From an uncultured archaeon (lineage in GTDB: Archaea; Nanohalarchaeota; Nanosalinia; Nanosalinales; Nanoanaerosalinaceae), in the NCBI GenBank assembly GCA_964517675.1, contig CAZFEL010000005.1, positions 9,250-73,249 on the forward strand: a stretch of 64,000 nucleotides of DNA, given 5' to 3'. How positions within the stretch are numbered: position 1 is the first letter of the stretch; each line of letters starts with the position of its first letter. Both the position numbers and the translations under genes were made by a program. Shown here one piece after another: positions 5,593-54,680 of this stretch. A model generated the notes under the pieces. The model was not told the origin of the DNA. It worked only from the letters and a program-made list of their open reading frames with translations, and did no database searches.

Positions 5593-6603
5593 ATGACCAT
5601 GGAACACGGCCAGGTCTCCACGGTTCTCACCGCAATATTCTTCCTCGGCAGCATCTGGATGCTCTGGCCGTTCTTCGGTGCGCTGCTCTTTGGCATGCTG
5701 ACCGCCTACATCCTCCTCTATCTTGAACAACGACTCAACGACCACCTCGAGAATCAGGTCATCAGCAACGCCGTTATCATAGTACTGATAACCGTCATCG
5801 TCGCTGGACTGCTCTATGGCGTCTCCTCAAGCGTCTCGACGTTCACCCGCAATATCGAACAGTTCATAACAACCATCTCGGGCAGTGCCTCCTACCTCAT
5901 CACCGTCTTCGATCTTCCAGGCTCACTTGCCAACGTCATCGATGCCATCCTCTCGGATATAAGCTCCCTCCTCCAGTCCACCCTGATCGGCGAGCTCAAG
6001 CGTGTCCCGAGCACCATTATCGATCTGACACTGTACGTCTTCGCAGTCTATTACTTCTACCGGGACGGCAAAGCATTGCGGACCAGGGTCTTCGGGCTCG
6101 TCGAACAGCTGGAGGAACGGAGACAGCACGTCGTCTTGACCCTTATCCGGAGCCTCGATGACCTCGCGCGGGGGGTCTTCCTCAACCGCCTCATCATCGC
6201 CCTCACCGTCACACTGCTGACAGGGACCGGGTACTTCCTCATGGGCATCGAGTTCTGGTGGGGCTGGGCCCTGGTGTCCGGTATGTTCTCCTTCGTCCCG
6301 TACTTCCAGCCATTCCTCGTGTACCTCCCGCTCGGCGGCCTCTACATGGCACTGGGGGACTTCTGGCTCGGGGTCATCATCATCGTCTACGGCATCCTGA
6401 TCCTGGACACCCTCCCGACCATCTTCATCAGACCCCATCTCGATACCCACAGGACGAAGGAACCGAACATCCTCCTGTTCCTCGGGTTCATAGCAGGCCC
6501 CATGGTCCTCGGGGCCAAAGGCATCATCCTCGGCCCGGTCATCCTCGTCCTCGCGAAGGACTTCTTCACAGAAATATTCAGCTACGATCAGGTACCTTCC
6601 TGA
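5593..6603 (+). CDS. AI-2E family transporter
   Basis: Polytopic membrane protein with FVPYF...P and LGFIAGPMVLGAKGIILGPVIL motifs. Confidence 0.85.
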   Translation: MTMEHGQVSTVLTAIFFLGSIWMLWPFFGALLFGMLTAYILLYLEQRLNDHLENQVISNAVIIVLITVIVAGLLYGVSSSVSTFTRNIEQFITTISGSASYLITVFDLPGSLANVIDAILSDISSLLQSTLIGELKRVPSTIIDLTLYVFAVYYFYRDGKALRTRVFGLVEQLEERRQHVVLTLIRSLDDLARGVFLNRLIIALTVTLLTGTGYFLMGIEFWWGWALVSGMFSFVPYFQPFLVYLPLGGLYMALGDFWLGVIIIVYGILILDTLPTIFIRPHLDTHRTKEPNILLFLGFIAGPMVLGAKGIILGPVILVLAKDFFTEIFSYDQVPS

Positions 6604-8084: not shown

Positions 8085-9794
8085 ATGGAGTACGCCGATC
8101 TCGTCGACGTCTTCGATCGCCTCATCGCGACCCAGGCCAACCTCGAGAAGACCTCGATCCTGGCCGGGACCTTCGGAGAGGCAGCGACCGAGGACCTCGG
8201 CATCATCGCGCGGTTCTGCCGCGGGAAGATCTTTCCCTCCTGGGACGATCGCGAAATCGGCATGTCCTCCAGCCTTGCGAAAGACGCCATCGCCAAAAAC
8301 ACCGGCGCCAGCGAGGACGAGATCGACGACATGTGGCGCGAGACAGGAGACCTCGGTGATGCCGCAGAGGAACTGTCCTCACAGAGCAACCAGGGCCTCG
8401 GCCAGTTCGACCCCGATTTCACGAGCGAACTCACCATCCACGATGTCATGGAGACCTTCGAGGAGATCGAGGAGGCCAGCGGTGAGGGATCGATCGAGGC
8501 GAAGGTATCCGGCCTCGCGAGTATGCTCTCGAAGGCCTCTCCCCGCGAGGCGAAGTACCTCGTCAGGCTCGCCATCGGGGCGATGCGGCTCGGGGTCGGG
8601 GAAGGAACGGTCAGGGACGCACTCGCGGAGACCTTCCTCCCGAAGATGGACGAGGACGATGCTAAAGAGCTCATCGAGCACGCCTACGATGTCACCAACG
8701 ACTACGGCCTCGTCGCCCGCACCGCCAGACAGGACGGGGCCGACGGACTCTCCGAGCTCGAGATGGAGCTCGGCCGGCCGATCAAGGTCATGCTCGCCCA
8801 GAAAGCCGAATCGATGGAGGACGGCTTCGAGGACATCGCGGACGAGGATGGACGGGTCGGGATGGAGTACAAGTACGACGGCATGCGGACCCAGATACAC
8901 AAAAACGGCGACGATATCACGGTATTCACCCGGCGGCTCGAGGATGTCACCAAACAGTTCCCTGACCTCCTCGAGGCGGTCGAGGACCACATCGAGGCCA
9001 AGACGTGCATCATCGAGGGCGAGGCCGTGGCCTACGACCCGGAGGACGGGAGCCTGATACCGTTCCAGCAGCTGTCCCGCCGCATCAAGCGGAAGTACGA
9101 CATCAACGAGATGGTCGAGGAGATCCCTGTCGTGCTTTACCTCTTCGATATCACCTACCTCGACGGACAGACCCTGCTCCAGGACCCCCTCCGGGACCGC
9201 CTCGAGAAGCTGGATTCGGTCCTCGACACCGAGGAACAGATCATCGAGCGGGCCGCCTATATGGAGACGGACGACAAGGAACGAGCCAACGAGTTCTATC
9301 AGGCCGCCCTCTCGGAGGGTCATGAGGGACTGATGCTGAAGAACCTCGATGCCGGGTACAAGCCCGGCTCCCGGGTAGGGTACATGGTCAAGCTCAAACC
9401 GATCATGGAGACACTCGACCTCGTCATCAACCGGGCCAAGTGGAGCGAGGGACGGAAAAGCGACTGGCTCGGCCGGCTGTTCCTTGCCTGCCGCGACGGC
9501 GACCAGCTCAAAGAGATCGGCCGGATGTCGACCGGGTTCACCGACGAGGAGCTGGCCGACCTCACCGAGCGGCTGGAGGAGCTTATCATCGAAGAGGACG
9601 GCCGGGAGGTCGACCTCCGCCCCGAGGTCGTCGTCGAGGTCGCCTACGAGGAGATCCAGGAGTCACCAAAGTACTCCTCCGGGTTCGCCCTGCGGTTCCC
9701 GCGGTTCATCCAGGTGCGGGAGGACCTCGATCGGGACGATGTCGATGACATCGAGAAGGTCCGCCGGCTGTACGAGGACCAGGCCGATACCTGA
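8085..9794 (+). CDS. lig: ATP-dependent DNA ligase
   Basis: Motif I EYKYDGMRTQIH, EGEAV, EGLMLK, LRFPRF. Confidence 0.97.
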   Translation: MEYADLVDVFDRLIATQANLEKTSILAGTFGEAATEDLGIIARFCRGKIFPSWDDREIGMSSSLAKDAIAKNTGASEDEIDDMWRETGDLGDAAEELSSQSNQGLGQFDPDFTSELTIHDVMETFEEIEEASGEGSIEAKVSGLASMLSKASPREAKYLVRLAIGAMRLGVGEGTVRDALAETFLPKMDEDDAKELIEHAYDVTNDYGLVARTARQDGADGLSELEMELGRPIKVMLAQKAESMEDGFEDIADEDGRVGMEYKYDGMRTQIHKNGDDITVFTRRLEDVTKQFPDLLEAVEDHIEAKTCIIEGEAVAYDPEDGSLIPFQQLSRRIKRKYDINEMVEEIPVVLYLFDITYLDGQTLLQDPLRDRLEKLDSVLDTEEQIIERAAYMETDDKERANEFYQAALSEGHEGLMLKNLDAGYKPGSRVGYMVKLKPIMETLDLVINRAKWSEGRKSDWLGRLFLACRDGDQLKEIGRMSTGFTDEELADLTERLEELIIEEDGREVDLRPEVVVEVAYEEIQESPKYSSGFALRFPRFIQVREDLDRDDVDDIEKVRRLYEDQADT

Positions 9795-17533: not shown

Positions 17534-17916
17534 CCCTGATGCTTGCCCTTGACCATCTTGCGGTCGCCGATGACCCAGTAGTTGATCTCCTCGCCCTCTG
17601 AGATACTGAGATCATCCGGCATCTTCATCTCCTCGGTCTCGTAGGTATCCATATCCATGACCTGGGCGATGTCCCCGTCCAGCGAGACGATCTGGCCGAC
17701 CTTCTTATCGACATCGGGGGACATCAGCATCGTATCGCCCGGCTTGGTCACAGTCCGCGTCTGGTCATCGAAGACACCGACCGCCTGGATGCGGTACTTG
17801 GCCGCACCGTGCTTGCCAGGGGCTGACTTCTTCGTTTTACGTACCTTACAGGGTTCGTCCTCAAGGATGATGTAGTCTCCCTTCGAGACACTCTTGGCTT
17901 CGACCTGATGTGGCAT
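17530..17916 (-). CDS. eif5a: Translation factor aIF5A/eIF5A
   Basis: KSAPGKHGAAK hypusine-site motif. Confidence 0.95.
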   Translation of the reverse strand: MPHQVEAKSVSKGDYIILEDEPCKVRKTKKSAPGKHGAAKYRIQAVGVFDDQTRTVTKPGDTMLMSPDVDKKVGQIVSLDGDIAQVMDMDTYETEEMKMPDDLSISEGEEINYWVIGDRKMVKGKHQG

Positions 17917-31977: not shown

Positions 31978-32328
31978 GCTCGTTCCTCGCTGGCCGGGGG
32001 AGATAGGATGGAAGGGAAAAAATCGGATGGTATCGCGGCGGTATCAGGCGGGATCGTCGGGCGGGCGGTGCCCGCGGTCGGTGGCCTGTGCGGGCATGAT
32101 GTGGCGTCCTCCCTCCGTGCCGAGAACGGGATGGTACCGCGGGTTTGGTCCGTCAGGTGCCGCCGTCCGCCGGTGTTCCGTGGTCTGGACCATCGTGTCG
32201 TACCTGTACATCAATAGTGTCGTACCCGTGAAGTATGTTGGACGACAGTAGATGTCACCACTGTGCGCACACCGGTCCGGCCACAAAGCATAAATGGGTC
32301 AGCCCCGCTGGGGTTACTACGACAGTGT

Positions 32329-32475
32329 GCCCGGGTGGCCGGATCCGGCGAACCGTCTGCGGTTCGACCGGTCGAGAAACCGCCAGGTTTTGACGGAGCC
32401 ACCCGGCGACAGCACCCACACAATGCCCGGGTGGGGGAGAACACGCACCTATCGGTGCTCAATCCGCTCACCCGG
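32329..32475 (+). repeat. Two hairpins, each beginning with the tRNA-Ser 5' decamer GCCCGGGTGG
   Basis: Decamer at 32329, 32425 and 32501; stems 32331-32339/32398-32406 and 32427-32433/32469-32475. Confidence 0.7.
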
Positions 32476-32500
32476 AAAAATTCACAAGGAAAAGAGCAAT

Positions 32501-32690
32501 GCCCGGGTGGCGGAGTCTGGCCCATCGCGGCGGATTCGAGCCTTGTATCGTCCTCGAACGCTGACGGTCGCAACCACGACCGGATGATCTCACGAGGAAC
32601 CCGTCACGTCCCTATATCAACGTCACAGGGGCGGCAAGCTAATTATCCGTTGGGCGTGAGCCCTCGCAGGTTCAAATCCTGCCCCGGGCG
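32501..32690 (+). tRNA. tRNA-Ser(CGA) with 104-nt intron at position 37/38
   Basis: Acceptor GCCCGGG/CCCGGGC, G73, anticodon stem GCGGA/TCCGT, long variable arm, T-arm GCAGG-TTCAAAT-CCTGC; CCA not encoded. Confidence 0.92.
32541..32644 (+). other. tRNA intron with relaxed bulge-helix-bulge junction and internal K-turn
   Basis: CTTG/CAAG outer helix, TTCG/CTAA central helix (one mismatch), CTGA-CGGTCG..CGACCG-GAT-GA. Confidence 0.8.
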
Positions 32691-32778
32691 CTCGCAGTTT
32701 CGCGAGGAGAAACAGACGGTTCGCTCCGCGAACCGACTAGAAAGATTCGCCTTCTCGCCGAGAAGCCTCGTATCAGAC

Positions 32779-32794
32779 CCTGCCCCGGGCGCTC
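32779..32794 (+). repeat. Duplicated tRNA-Ser 3' end (att-like); a more degenerate copy lies at 32921-32939
   Basis: CCTGCCCCGGGCGCTC is identical to 32678-32693; GTTCAACTCCTGCCCCTGG matches the T-arm at 17/19. Confidence 0.85.
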
Positions 32795-32991
32795 CAAGTC
32801 TTCCGGAGTACTCCCAAATCACAGATCTGGTGCGGACCTAGCACCCTCCGGTTGCGAGTAAAAGAGAAGGGCTGTCCTCCGGACACCCCGACAGAACGTT
32901 CCTCCCGCGTGACTGTAGGCGTTCAACTCCTGCCCCTGGTTTCAGTCTGGTACACAACTATAATATAGCCGCATCAAGCACCCATGTAATA

Positions 32992-36197: not shown

Positions 36198-37070
36198 TCA
36201 ACTCACCTGTCGGATAGCGTTCCGGAACTGCGACACAGGCTGTGGCCCGACCAGTTTCACAGAGTTGCCTGTCTCCTGGTTGTAGATGATGAACGACGGG
36301 GTGCCACGGATCCCCTGCTTCCGGCCCTCATCCAGGTCCTCCTGCACTTCTCCGCTGTACGTATCCTGGTTCAACGCGGTCCGCACCTTCTCAACGTCGA
36401 TCCCATCGATCTGACCGGTGAGTTCCAGGATGTTCTGCTGTGACGCCCAGCCGGACCCTTCCCTGCCCTGGTTGTCGTATATGTGTGCATGCCATTCCCA
36501 GAAGGCTTGCGGGTCGCTGTCCTTGACCTGGTCCCACACCGCCTGTGAGGCCTGCGCAGGTATCGGTGACTTCGGGGTGATGACCGGGAAGTTCTTCTTC
36601 ACGAACATGGCCTCGCCGGCATCGATGACCTGCTGTCTCAGCCGTGGGAAGGAACGCTGCTCAAACGCGCGGCAGGACGGGCACGTGTAGTCGCCGAAAT
36701 AGTAGATCGTCGTCGAGGCGCTGGAATCGCCGAGTACAGGATCATCCGTCGACAGGCTGATACCGCTGCCGGTAGCCGCACCTGTCCCCCCCGTGCTCCC
36801 GCTGCTACCGCCAAACGCAAACAAAGCGCCGACACCGAGGAGTGCAACCAGACCAGCCACAAGATACGTCTTGTTGATACCGAGCACTGCATTAGCGAGA
36901 TCGCTCCGGTGCGTCTTCCGGTGGTCCTGCAGCAGTTCATCCGAGCCGAACCGTTCGCCGCAGTCCGGACACTCCGACAGCTTGCTGTGGTCATAGTCCT
37001 CCATATGCTGTTCCAGAGCCTCTTCGGAGCCGAAGGATGTGCCGCATTTCTCACAGTCGTGTCCGCCCAT
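36198..37070 (-). CDS. DsbA-like thioredoxin-fold protein with two N-terminal C2H2-type zinc fingers and a TM helix
   Basis: CEKC..F..EEALEQH and CPDC..F..DELLQDH; GDYTCPSC active site; GTPSF cis-Pro loop. Confidence 0.85.
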   Translation of the reverse strand: MGGHDCEKCGTSFGSEEALEQHMEDYDHSKLSECPDCGERFGSDELLQDHRKTHRSDLANAVLGINKTYLVAGLVALLGVGALFAFGGSSGSTGGTGAATGSGISLSTDDPVLGDSSASTTIYYFGDYTCPSCRAFEQRSFPRLRQQVIDAGEAMFVKKNFPVITPKSPIPAQASQAVWDQVKDSDPQAFWEWHAHIYDNQGREGSGWASQQNILELTGQIDGIDVEKVRTALNQDTYSGEVQEDLDEGRKQGIRGTPSFIIYNQETGNSVKLVGPQPVSQFRNAIRQVS

Positions 37071-41034: not shown

Positions 41035-42489
41035 CTACAGCCGCCGCGTCCTGCCCGGCATCGAGCGGACCATCGCATCATCCTTAGCGACCGGCTGGAG
41101 GTACGTCCCTTTCGCCTCACGTTCCCACCAGTCACCGGTCTCCTGCCAGGTCTCGATGTCTGTGAACTCGTACCTGAACAGCCGGGCACGGATCCGCTCC
41201 GGCGGGTCACCGTCGAACGGATCCTCAGCCAGCAGGGTCCTGATGTCCTCGTCCCCGTCCAGCAGCTTCTCGACCATCCTGAGGAACCACGGGTTCCGGT
41301 ACGGCGAGGACATCGCGGCGAACCACATCTGCCAGTCCAGGCGGAGATGATACGGCGCCCACTGGGGCAGCAGCCGGGAGACATCCGTGGGCTTGCCCTT
41401 GAACCTGTAGGCCTCCCAGTCAGCCTCGTCCGGCTCCTCCGACATCGTGGCCTCGAGGACGATCTCCGAGCGCTCCTTCGTGATGTGGCCGAAGGCACCG
41501 TAGGTGTTGACCAGGTGTACGGGGTCGAAGCTGGCGTTCATCCGCTGGCCCGAGGAGATCATGTTCCTGACCGGGTAATAGCTCAGCGCCACCACGAGCA
41601 GGCCCAGCCCGTAGACCCCAAGCTGGTGGACCGGGCCGGGCGGTACCGTAGCCGGGGCACCAAGCGGTAGGGCAGATAGCATCCCGTCCGACAGCGTCGA
41701 GACCGCCAGGACCGCCGTCAGCATGTTGAGCCATGAGAAGTTCCCCGACAGCATCAACCAGCCCTGGAACCCGATCGTCGCCAGTCCCGCAAATCCTGCA
41801 ATGGGCTGGGGGGCGAAGTACAGGAACGGGACCACCAGCTCGACGATATGGTTGATCAGCACCTCGAGACGGTGGACCGGTCGGGGCAGCTTGGCGACGA
41901 ACCACGACAGCGGGTTCGGCATCGGCTGGGTCTCGTAGTGGTACTGCATACAGGTCAGATCTCGCCAGCACGGGTCACCACGGATCTTGATCAGTCCAGC
42001 CCCAAACATCACCCTGAACAGCAGCCAGCGGAGCAGCCAGACCACGATCTCCGGTGCGGCCGTCCCGGCCCCGCCGAGGAAGATCGCGAGGAACCCTGTC
42101 TCAAGCAGCAGGGACTCCCAGCCGAACCCATAGAACGTCCGCCCGACATTGACGAAGGACAGGTACAGCAGCCACAGCAGCCCCCAGACCGCGACGACAG
42201 CCGCCATCCCGAGCCGGGAGGGCAGACCGAGGAAAGCGAGCAGGGAAAGACCCACACCGGACCAGGCCGCGACAGCGACCGCCCTGTCTGTCGGGACGAG
42301 ATGGAACAGGCTCGGTGCCTCCCTGAAGCCGACACTGTCCACCAGCTCCGTGAACGGCAGCAGGCCATCCTCGCCGTTGAGCGGTCGGAACTGGAAGGCA
42401 GCGACCAGGAACGCGATCAGGTATATGCCGGCCAGTCCCCGCTGGAAGACGAACCGGACCAGCCAGTAAGCGGACTCCTCCCACAGCAT
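41035..42489 (-). CDS. Lipase maturation factor (LMF1) family membrane protein
   Basis: FGWESLLLETG, RVMFGAGLIK, HYETQPMPN, PYHLRLDWQMWFAAM. Confidence 0.9.
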   Translation of the reverse strand: MLWEESAYWLVRFVFQRGLAGIYLIAFLVAAFQFRPLNGEDGLLPFTELVDSVGFREAPSLFHLVPTDRAVAVAAWSGVGLSLLAFLGLPSRLGMAAVVAVWGLLWLLYLSFVNVGRTFYGFGWESLLLETGFLAIFLGGAGTAAPEIVVWLLRWLLFRVMFGAGLIKIRGDPCWRDLTCMQYHYETQPMPNPLSWFVAKLPRPVHRLEVLINHIVELVVPFLYFAPQPIAGFAGLATIGFQGWLMLSGNFSWLNMLTAVLAVSTLSDGMLSALPLGAPATVPPGPVHQLGVYGLGLLVVALSYYPVRNMISSGQRMNASFDPVHLVNTYGAFGHITKERSEIVLEATMSEEPDEADWEAYRFKGKPTDVSRLLPQWAPYHLRLDWQMWFAAMSSPYRNPWFLRMVEKLLDGDEDIRTLLAEDPFDGDPPERIRARLFRYEFTDIETWQETGDWWEREAKGTYLQPVAKDDAMVRSMPGRTRRL

Positions 42490-53571: not shown

Positions 53572-54084
53572 TCACTCCGGTTCCCGGGTCAGCTTCTGGT
53601 CCGCGGACGGTTCGACCTCGATCTCCGCTCCCGGAAACGTCGACGAGATCTCCCTGTCCTGGAGCTCGTACAGGAAGATCCCGGTCGCGGTGACCTCCGA
53701 ATGGGGCTGGTTGCCAACAGCGAGATTGTGATCGACCAGCTCATAGACCTCACGCGGGACCTTCTGCGAGCCGACCGCGACCAGTATATCCTCGGCCTCT
53801 CGCACCGCATCCATCTTCTCGCGGAACGGCAGGCCGTACATCGTCAGGTGGACCGAGGTACCCTCGAAGTCCCTGATAACCCTCCGGTAGTCCTCCCGGT
53901 GGGTGATGTCGAGCTCCCCGCCCCACCGGTCCCGGACATCCTCTAAGCTCTCCACCATGTTGTCGTCTTTCTCACCGGAGTAGATCACCCGGTCAGCACC
54001 GAACTGGCGGGCGGTCAGTCCGACATGGGACGAGATCCGGTCATCCCTGCCGCGCCTATGCCCGAGACGGAGGACCGTTATCAT
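53572..54084 (-). CDS. trm56: tRNA (cytidine56-2'-O)-methyltransferase
   Basis: LRLGHR..RD.RISSHVGLTARQFGA, VHLTMYG, VGSQKVP, VGNQPHSEV. Confidence 0.95.
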   Translation of the reverse strand: MITVLRLGHRRGRDDRISSHVGLTARQFGADRVIYSGEKDDNMVESLEDVRDRWGGELDITHREDYRRVIRDFEGTSVHLTMYGLPFREKMDAVREAEDILVAVGSQKVPREVYELVDHNLAVGNQPHSEVTATGIFLYELQDREISSTFPGAEIEVEPSADQKLTREPE

Positions 54085-54110
54085 GCACTCCGCAGCGAGA
54101 ACGAGGCTTT

Positions 54111-54680
54111 TCAATCCCTTGGTCCCGTCACCAGCACCACGGCACCGGCCAGCAGGACGAGGACGACGAGGTGGACGGGCTGGACACCTGGAGCCTGGAC
54201 GCCCTGGACGCCCCTGTCGATCGTCAGCTGCATATCCATATCGAAGCGCTCGCCGGTCTCCCTGTTCTGGACATGGACCGTCAGCGAGCCGCCACAGGTC
54301 GAGCGGTAGCAGGTGCTCGGGGCGAACGTCAGCGAGATACCGCGGGTCGAGCGCCCCTCCACCGTGAACCGTGCACGGTCTCCGGTCACCCTATCCACGT
54401 TCCTGAACTCCGTGTAGACACCTGCATCACCGCTTGTCGAGGTCCAGATCTCGTACGTATCGGTCCTGATGCCCTCGTTCTGGACCCGGGCCACCCGTGT
54501 CCGGGTCGTCCCGATCTCGAGGTCGAGGTCGGACGTGTTGAACTCGATGGTATCCCCCTCACCGAATGTCTCGGCTAAGGTCTGCCGATCCCACGGCTCA
54601 CGCTCCGGCTCCATCATCGTCCCCGCAGCGGCTGTCGAGAACACGAGGAGACAGCACACCGCGATCGGGAGACGGGACAT
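54111..54680 (-). CDS. Secreted, C-terminally membrane-anchored hypothetical protein
   Basis: Signal peptide, beta-rich body, C-terminal hydrophobic helix. Confidence 0.7.
   Translation of the reverse strand: MSRLPIAVCCLLVFSTAAAGTMMEPEREPWDRQTLAETFGEGDTIEFNTSDLDLEIGTTRTRVARVQNEGIRTDTYEIWTSTSGDAGVYTEFRNVDRVTGDRARFTVEGRSTRGISLTFAPSTCYRSTCGGSLTVHVQNRETGERFDMDMQLTIDRGVQGVQAPGVQPVHLVVLVLLAGAVVLVTGPRD

Follow-up and report, generated by a model that had tools for sequence, protein, structure and literature searches.

The window analysed here is a 64,000-nt stretch of DNA (positions 9,250 to 73,249 of the forward strand of contig CAZFEL010000005.1, GenBank assembly GCA_964517675.1) from an uncultured nanohaloarchaeon. 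Its G+C content is ~61%, and the nearest proteins to its serine hydroxymethyltransferase (SHMT) are named Candidatus Nanohaloarchaea (best identity 80%). At 32501-32690, on the plus strand like every part of the gene described below, the window carries a tRNA-Ser(CGA) gene interrupted by a 104-nt intron, and it is this intron, as a candidate guide for the 2′-O-methylation of its own precursor, that concerns us here. The gene was recovered with the Rfam tRNA model in a permissive scan (E<=10; 33.5 bits, with an anticodon-loop insertion of 108 nt) and by ARAGORN with introns allowed, which returned Ser(cga) with a 104-nt intron after base 40. Both default ARAGORN and the Rfam scan at the gathering threshold missed it, suggesting that the tRNA sets of metagenome-assembled genomes (MAGs) of this kind are probably under-called. 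An open reading frame (ORF) that overlaps the gene (32263-32841, plus strand) has a low third-position GC (0.63) and is probably spurious.

The 5′ exon (32501-32540) covers tRNA positions 1-37, with the anticodon C34-G35-A36 at 32537-32539, and the 3′ exon (32645-32690) covers positions 38-73, with a long variable arm and no encoded CCA. The intron (32541-32644) occupies the canonical 37/38 position and is delimited by a good bulge-helix-bulge (BHB) splicing motif of the hBHBh′ form, in which the anticodon stem serves as the 5-bp helix h and CUUGU (32542-32546) pairs with 32634-32638 as the 5-bp helix h′ (C-G, U-A, U-A, G-C and U.G). The 3′ strand of the motif (32634-32644) continues from h′ through CUAA of the central helix (32639-32642) to the bulge nucleotides UU (32643-32644, completed by A38). 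A BHB intron is recognized by two 3-nt bulges, a 4-bp helix between them, flanking helices h and h′, and cuts after the second nucleotide of each bulge. The Ser gene has this arrangement, its bulges being A36-G37-C and U-U-A38 and its central helix consisting of three pairs (U32-A, U33-A and G35-C) with C34 opposite U as the sole mismatch.

The intron contains the parts of a kink-turn (K-turn). The non-bulged strand is an exact D′ box, CUGA (32561-32564; 4n C, 3n U, 2n G and 1n A). It is followed by the canonical C helix, a hairpin of the form CGGUCG-CAACCA-CGACCG (32565-32582) whose 6-bp stem is formed by 32565-32570 and 32577-32582, and then by a C′-like box, GAUGAUCU (32583-32590), which supplies the bulge GAU (32583-32585), the GA (32586-32587) that forms tandem sheared G.A and A.G pairs with the GA of CUGA, a U.U pair (32588), and then C and U. 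The sequence GAUGAU fits the RUGAU of the box C consensus, and boxes C and D joined by tandem sheared G.A pairs are what mark a K-turn of this class. As judged from its sequence, the Ser element is a K-turn of the box C/D type in the internal order D′-then-C′, the D′-C′ spacer being helical, while a short loop is usual at this point in archaeal sRNAs.

Adjoining the D′ box on its 5′ side is the putative guide region, UCCUCGAACG (32551-32560). Within it, CTCGAA (32553-32558; guide nucleotides 3-8) is the exact complement of the anticodon-loop segment U32-G37 (UUCGAG, 32535-32540) and would form six Watson-Crick pairs with it. G32556, the fifth base upstream of CTGA, falls opposite C34 (32537), the proposed 2′-O-methylation site. 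An antisense stretch 5′ of the D or D′ box with the target nucleotide opposite the fifth position (the N+5 register) is the arrangement of archaeal C/D guides. The original prediction, which had read this intron as a minimal C′/D′ guide aimed at its own wobble nucleotide, had described the CTGA, the 6-bp stem, the GAT-GA-T that gives K-turn geometry, the CTCGAA, the G32556:C34 pair and the position of C34 as the single mismatch of the BHB central helix, and each of these was found exactly where it had been placed.

Among contigs encoding SHMT homologs, GCA_034190465.1 (L003), whose SHMT is 80% identical to that of the window, carries a syntenic tRNA-Ser(CGA) gene with exons identical to those of the window and a 102-nt intron. 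The two introns are 85% identical, as against 78% (nucleotide) for the SHMT gene and ~50% for the flanks. The guide, CUGA, GAUGAU and a stem that competes with the guide pairing (discussed below) are all unchanged, and so is the stem of a second intron hairpin (CGUCCCU...AGGGGCG, 32607-32633) in the minimum free energy (MFE) fold, where all L003 differences lie in the loop. In the K-turn hairpin, by contrast with these unchanged parts, CGGUCG/CGACCG has become CGACCG/CGGUCG through two fully compensated pairs, and the hairpin loop has been rewritten. This pattern indicates that the Ser intron is under purifying selection and that the hairpin is selected as a helix.

The same module occurs in a second tRNA. 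Six related, SHMT-linked loci from high-GC nanohaloarchaeal MAGs (L004, L005, L128, L129, L134 and L135) contain a tRNA-Lys(UUU) gene with an intron of 93-214 nt at 37/38. These genes, like the related Ser gene, were sought by ARAGORN runs with introns allowed only; the Rfam tRNA model, applied to all the Lys loci except L004 (E<=1), scored 49-57 bits in L005, L128, L129 and L134 and reported no match for the gene in L135. The Lys introns diverge strongly in length and sequence, both from one another and from the Ser intron, and their h′ helix is weak (0-2 bp). All six nevertheless contain G-CUGA, a helix of 3-5 pairs that sometimes encloses a 52-57-nt insertion, and GAUGAU, so that CUGA preceded by G, and GAUGAU after the helix, are kept in all eight introns of the two families. 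Upstream of CUGA, 8-12 nucleotides complement G31-A37 together with the first 1-5 intron nucleotides. The resulting runs of 8-12 bp have the length of established guide duplexes, and because they extend into the intron in 6/6 cases, only the precursor could serve as the substrate. The fifth guide nucleotide pairs with U34 in every Lys intron. Variation within the Lys guides takes the form of pairing-preserving transitions (A-U/G.U opposite U36 and C-G/U.G opposite G31), and the ninth guide nucleotide covaries with the first of the intron (A-U in four, C-G in two). In unconstrained MFE folds the guide:target helix is present in 6/6 Lys precursors. In L129 and L134 it takes the form of a cis hairpin with a GNRA cap (GCGA and GCAA, with z = -2.9 and -2.4, respectively).

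Two further observations touch the Lys introns. In all six, the D′ box with its flanks, G-CUGA-G, complements CUCAGC in the D-arm of the same tRNA (e.g., L129 4942-4947); this pairing appears in some MFE folds and may be a coincidence of two conserved motifs. In addition, two IMG/VR contigs (L146, 2598-2696; L161, ~29-95) carry archaeal-type tRNA-Lys(UUU) genes that have the same anticodon arm, and introns of only 21 and ~15 nt in which there is no K-turn. The Lys intron at 37/38 thus has a wider distribution than the guide module. The module has the look of something inserted into, or lost from, a simple BHB intron.

When the two families are taken together, 92.7% of the cells of the proposed pairing structure are paired across the eight sequences, as against 68.8+-3.1% in shuffles (0/500), and sliding the register by 1-3 columns lowers pairing to 21-45%. 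In nine of the 12 pairs both sides vary. The three helix pairs nearest the K-turn are kept in 100% of the eight introns, again with changes on both sides, and in 8/8 genes position 34 faces the fifth nucleotide from CUGA.

How far could chance produce such an arrangement, that is, a K-turn-like motif beside a palindrome-rich hexamer in a GC-rich intron? Taken singly, the elements of the Ser intron are at chance level: the window has 10 matches to a loose K-turn pattern compared with 8.2+-3.3 in shuffles, about two 6-mer intron:exon complements are estimated to arise by chance for these lengths and two are observed, and TCGA is self-complementary. The folding energy of the Ser intron is likewise ordinary (intron z = -1.2; local module z = -0.4), and we rejected thermodynamics as evidence for it. 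Only the joint geometry is rare, and the evidence is comparative. Beside a given CUGA, six or more consecutive Watson-Crick pairs in the fixed N+5 register have a probability of ~1.2e-3 for Ser, and the register-specific probability for Lys is ~2e-3. A strict motif (GCTGA, stem, GATGAT) has 11 matches in 209 kb compared with 0.2 in shuffles; eight of these matches are in tRNA introns, and all eight long introns have it. With these figures and the compensatory changes and covariation described above, chance is a highly improbable explanation.

The reading that we consider probable on these sequence data is that the intron acts as a single-K-turn ("half-mer") box C′/D′ guide, which would direct 2′-O-methylation of nucleotide 34 in its own precursor before splicing. 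It is directly supported by the anatomy, the conservation, the covariation in the K-turn helix and between guide and target, and the fixed N+5 register, whereas the binding of L7Ae, Nop5 and fibrillarin, the methylation itself, the order of events and the use of a two-motif enzyme on one K-turn are what we infer. The self-guide aimed at C34 that had been predicted is thus supported by the invariance and compensation in L003, by the Lys family and by the N+5 pair counts. The related introns, whose conservation had been named as a check, have the same guide and boxes in L003 and the module with matching guides in the six Lys genes. Support is strongest in the Lys genes, while the window's own Ser intron is the weakest, minimal member.

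In the proposed sequence of events, the pre-tRNA would be transcribed with its intron, and L7Ae would bind the K-turn formed by CUGA (32561-32564), the 6-bp hairpin and GAUGAU (32583-32588). Nop5-fibrillarin would then dock onto the L7Ae-bound K-turn, while the stretch 5′ of CUGA would pair with the anticodon loop (U32-G37 in Ser; G31-A37 plus the first 1-5 intron nucleotides in Lys). Nucleotide 34, which faces the fifth position of the guide, would be 2′-O-methylated on its ribose, to give Cm34 in tRNA-Ser(CGA) and a Um34-type residue in tRNA-Lys(UUU). The RNA would next refold to the BHB form, and splicing endonuclease and ligase would excise the intron. Since nucleotides 32-35 are needed by both the guide duplex and the BHB central helix, the two folds exclude each other and methylation would have to precede splicing. 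A Nop5 dimer bridging two precursors is one possible answer to the problem posed by a single K-turn.

Several points weigh against a guide function. The window intron has no second CUGA or UGAUGA, as a two-motif C/D RNA (terminal C/D and internal C′/D′, ~12 nt apart) would, and in none of the eight introns could a K-turn be formed from a second CUGA and a GAUGA partner. The last two positions of the C′ box do not follow RUGAUGA and give C.C or U.C in place of the canonical G-C pair. Cm34 in a serine tRNA that reads UCG has no obvious decoding rationale. No L7Ae, Nop5 or fibrillarin gene was found in Pfam and NCBIfam scans of ~55 ORFs from the 64-kb window, and no canonical two-motif C/D sRNA in ~200 kb of nanohaloarchaeal DNA; L7Ae has been reported in Nanohaloarchaeota (PMC4919917), and fibrillarin and Nop5 are part of an archaeal single-copy marker set (PMC9258230). 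Ser and Lys represent only two independent origins, and the pairing structure that was tested was chosen after the sequences had been seen. For Ser itself, the guide is short (6 bp against roughly 8-12 bp or more in archaeal box C/D guides), its pairing ends at G37 without reaching into the intron, and only two Ser introns were found, with identical guides, so that there is no guide covariation within this family. The guide also takes part in a real competing stem, TCCTCG (32551-32556) with CGAGGA (32593-32598), which is the same in L003, is present in the MFE folds of both the intron and the pre-tRNA, and sequesters guide nucleotides 5-10. The caveats attached to the prediction from the outset (six base pairs of guide, no terminal C/D pair and this competing stem) accordingly stand for Ser.

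These weaknesses could also mean that the Lys introns work as guides while the Ser intron, once a complete C/D intron, is now a relic, either decaying or repurposed, with a guide too short and too sequestered to function. We consider this unlikely. The contrast of 6 bp with the 8-12 bp of Lys, the burial of the guide within the MFE, the ordinary fold stability (z = -1.2) and the missing terminal C/D pair are what a relic would display, but the Ser intron is conserved above the neighbouring protein-coding gene, and its substitutions leave guide, boxes and stem A untouched and, in the K-turn helix, compensate one another. Moreover, the guide:target conformer lies only 1.3 kcal/mol above the MFE, and a guide that pairs in cis, at 12 nt from its target, can afford a short duplex.

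The main rival to the guide reading concerns both families. It holds that the K-turn is an architectural module that binds L7Ae without methyl transfer, and that the antisense helix chaperones folding, times splicing, or shields the loop from premature modification or nucleases. The single K-turn and the C′ box without its last two consensus positions suit this explanation, as does the lack of C/D proteins and canonical sRNAs in the DNA examined, and the available text of PMC5539422 and PMC4245976 describes many archaeal K-turns outside the C/D class that are bound by L7Ae. The Lys guide:target helix, being the MFE state that must open before the BHB can form, fits a timing switch. An architectural or masking module explains the K-turn and the helix but not the distance that the two families share: masking needs no fixed spacing between helix and K-turn, yet N+5 is found in both families and in 8/8 genes, and the combination of CUGA, U.U and tandem G.A is specific to the C/D-type K-turn. 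We therefore rate it as rather improbable, though less so than the relic.

The preferred reading, a cis-acting guide for nucleotide 34, has close counterparts among known systems. The intron of pre-tRNA-Trp guides formation of Cm34 and Um39, and several trans-acting C/D sRNAs aim at position 34 (PMC7994747, PMC2584109); Cm/Um-type residues at this position are known in archaeal tRNAs (PMC7668247). Like the pre-tRNA-Trp guide (Pyrococcus sR50; Haloferax volcanii), the introns described here are BHB introns at 37/38 of the targeted tRNA, with a D′ guide on the anticodon loop that places nucleotide 34 opposite the fifth position from the box. They also share with it the mutual exclusion of guide pairing and splicing motif, which in pre-tRNA-Trp and pre-tRNA-Met places methylation before splicing (PMC2584109, PMC7994747). 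Unlike pre-tRNA-Trp, which has both C/D and C′/D′ motifs and two targets (Cm34 and Um39), they have one K-turn and one target; in the Ser intron no D box was found 3′ of the C′ box that could direct a second guide to nucleotide 39. Other differences are the hosts, Ser(CGA) and Lys(UUU), the lineage, Nanohaloarchaeota (DPANN), and the D′-C′ spacer, which is helical and makes a true K-turn rather than a K-loop. The Ser and Lys introns would work like the pre-tRNA-Trp guide, yet with one motif, one target and other hosts they are not strict members of its family. Pre-tRNA-Trp has been called "unique" among the intron-containing tRNAs of H. volcanii for carrying C/D boxes (PMC2584109).

The closest DPANN precedent, also in a non-Trp host, is the 66-nt elongator tRNA-Met intron of Nanoarchaeum equitans. 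It holds a stable, C/D box-like RNA whose box D fits the consensus, whose box C is slightly mutated and which has a stable GC hairpin; this RNA was proposed to be a methylation guide (PMC3491384). It belongs to a different tRNA and a different phylum, and the available text of that report gives neither an N+5 target nor comparative support. The trans-acting sR-tMet/sR49, which directs Cm34 of the intron-containing pre-tRNA-Met, resembles the present introns in its wobble target, and its pairing includes intron nucleotides and so acts on the precursor (PMC2584109), just as the Lys guides cover the first 1-5 intron nucleotides; unlike them, it is a full two-motif sRNA encoded outside the tRNA gene. 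The combination of one K-turn with one guide is known from half-mer box C/D RNAs in structural work on Pyrococcus furiosus, and a half-mer has been seen to assemble with L7Ae, Nop5, fibrillarin and target in a crystal structure (Xue et al. 2010, reviewed in PMC6239191). Those half-mers were engineered fragments of two-motif sRNAs, whereas here the half-mer would be natural and lie inside its own substrate. In its details the K-turn is like the standard, L7Ae-bound Kt-7/box C/D class (a C helix, a 3-nt bulge ending in U, tandem G.A/A.G and U.U at 3b.3n), except that the G-C expected at 4b.4n in the canonical box C/D K-turn is C.C (or U.C or A.C).

No account of guide modules, whether from Nanohaloarchaeota or from the introns of a Ser or Lys tRNA, emerged from a limited literature search. 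The persistence of archaeal tRNA introns is largely unexplained, the self-guide of pre-tRNA-Trp being the textbook exception. Self-guiding has so far been described for a tryptophan tRNA and suggested for one methionine tRNA, to which our sequence comparisons would add Ser and Lys, carrying what is known of pre-tRNA-Trp over to two further tRNAs, and to another phylum. The reduction to one K-turn points to self-guidance by introns as a recurring solution and not a curiosity. More broadly, a high-GC clade of Nanohaloarchaeota may keep long introns in several tRNA genes (Ser-CGA, Lys-UUU and probably more) as natural one-K-turn guides for cis methylation of the wobble ribose, some of them working through a GNRA-capped hairpin; we regard this wider proposal as evenly balanced between right and wrong. 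If true, it would mean a minimal C/D ribonucleoprotein (RNP) embedded in its substrate, which would need either a Nop5 dimer across two precursors or a truly single-motif enzyme, and reduced DPANN genomes would have a selective reason to retain their tRNA introns. As small natural substrates, the precursors of tRNA-Ser(CGA) and tRNA-Lys(UUU) lend themselves to questions about single-motif C/D RNPs and the order of methylation and splicing.

Further searches for relatives and for other guide RNAs gave the following results. No C/D family of Rfam matched at the introns, either at the Ser locus (E<=10, where only the tRNA model matched) or at the five scanned Lys loci (E<=1), in which the sole C/D-family match was sR30 in L129, 6 kb from the intron. 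As SHMT is too conserved, a scan of a genome collection for syntenic loci, seeded with an SHMT alignment, yielded mostly bacterial sequences and a single haloarchaeon, with no Nanohaloarchaeota among them. A metagenome scan with the exon pattern CCATCGCGGCGGATTCGAG gave 42 matches, all by chance in unrelated sequence and none in a tRNA. Viral contigs scanned with two Ser patterns (the exon; the guide with the boxes) yielded nothing, and with the Lys exon pattern they yielded mostly intron-less, apparently bacterial or phage tRNA-Lys genes, together with two archaeal-type short-intron genes without a K-turn. No intron-containing tRNA was found around SHMT in the cultured, low-GC Nanohalobium constans and Nanohalovita, which leaves the self-guide system without a tie to a cultivated strain. 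Two candidates were set aside. One was a strict-motif match at 17822-17871 of the window, which lies antisense within the aIF5A gene, has a 3-bp stem and was taken as chance. The other was CUCACG (32589-32594), directly 3′ of the C′ box, which in both the window and L003 complements CGUGAG of the variable-arm loop (32655-32660); as a second antisense element it has no D box to set a register, and a 6-mer is within chance expectation.

The tRNA gene is flanked by partial copies of itself. Copies of the 5′ end of tRNA-Ser lie upstream (32328-32349 and 32421-32439) and copies of its 3′ end downstream (32771-32799 and 32921-32939). They are 79-95% identical and resemble att sites left behind by repeated integration and excision at tRNA-Ser. 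As read from the sequence, both upstream copies could pair with stretches that contain CACCCGG and lie 50-70 nt beyond them. Partial copies are arranged around tRNA-Ser in the same way in L002, which comes from a second sample. In L004, two partial copies of a tRNA 3′ end (GGTTCAAATCCCATCAGGCCCA; ~5685-5715 and 5790-5815) lie downstream of the intron-containing tRNA-Lys(UUU), att-like as at Ser. The spot beside SHMT seems to be an integration hot-spot, occupied by tRNA-Ser in two genomes and by tRNA-Lys in others.

Elsewhere in the window, 53572-54114 (minus strand) encodes aTrm56 (PF01994, E = 4.7e-34), a protein-only tRNA Cm56 2′-O-methyltransferase, so that Cm56 would need no guide RNA here. 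The gene at 36198-37070 (minus strand) joins N-terminal C2H2 zinc fingers and a DsbA/thioredoxin-like domain in one protein, and L003 has a related thioredoxin/cupredoxin protein in a similar position relative to SHMT. Finally, 41035-42489 (minus strand) encodes a homolog of lipase maturation factor (LMF1, E = 1e-63; LMF1_C, E = 1e-48), a family known mainly from eukaryotes.

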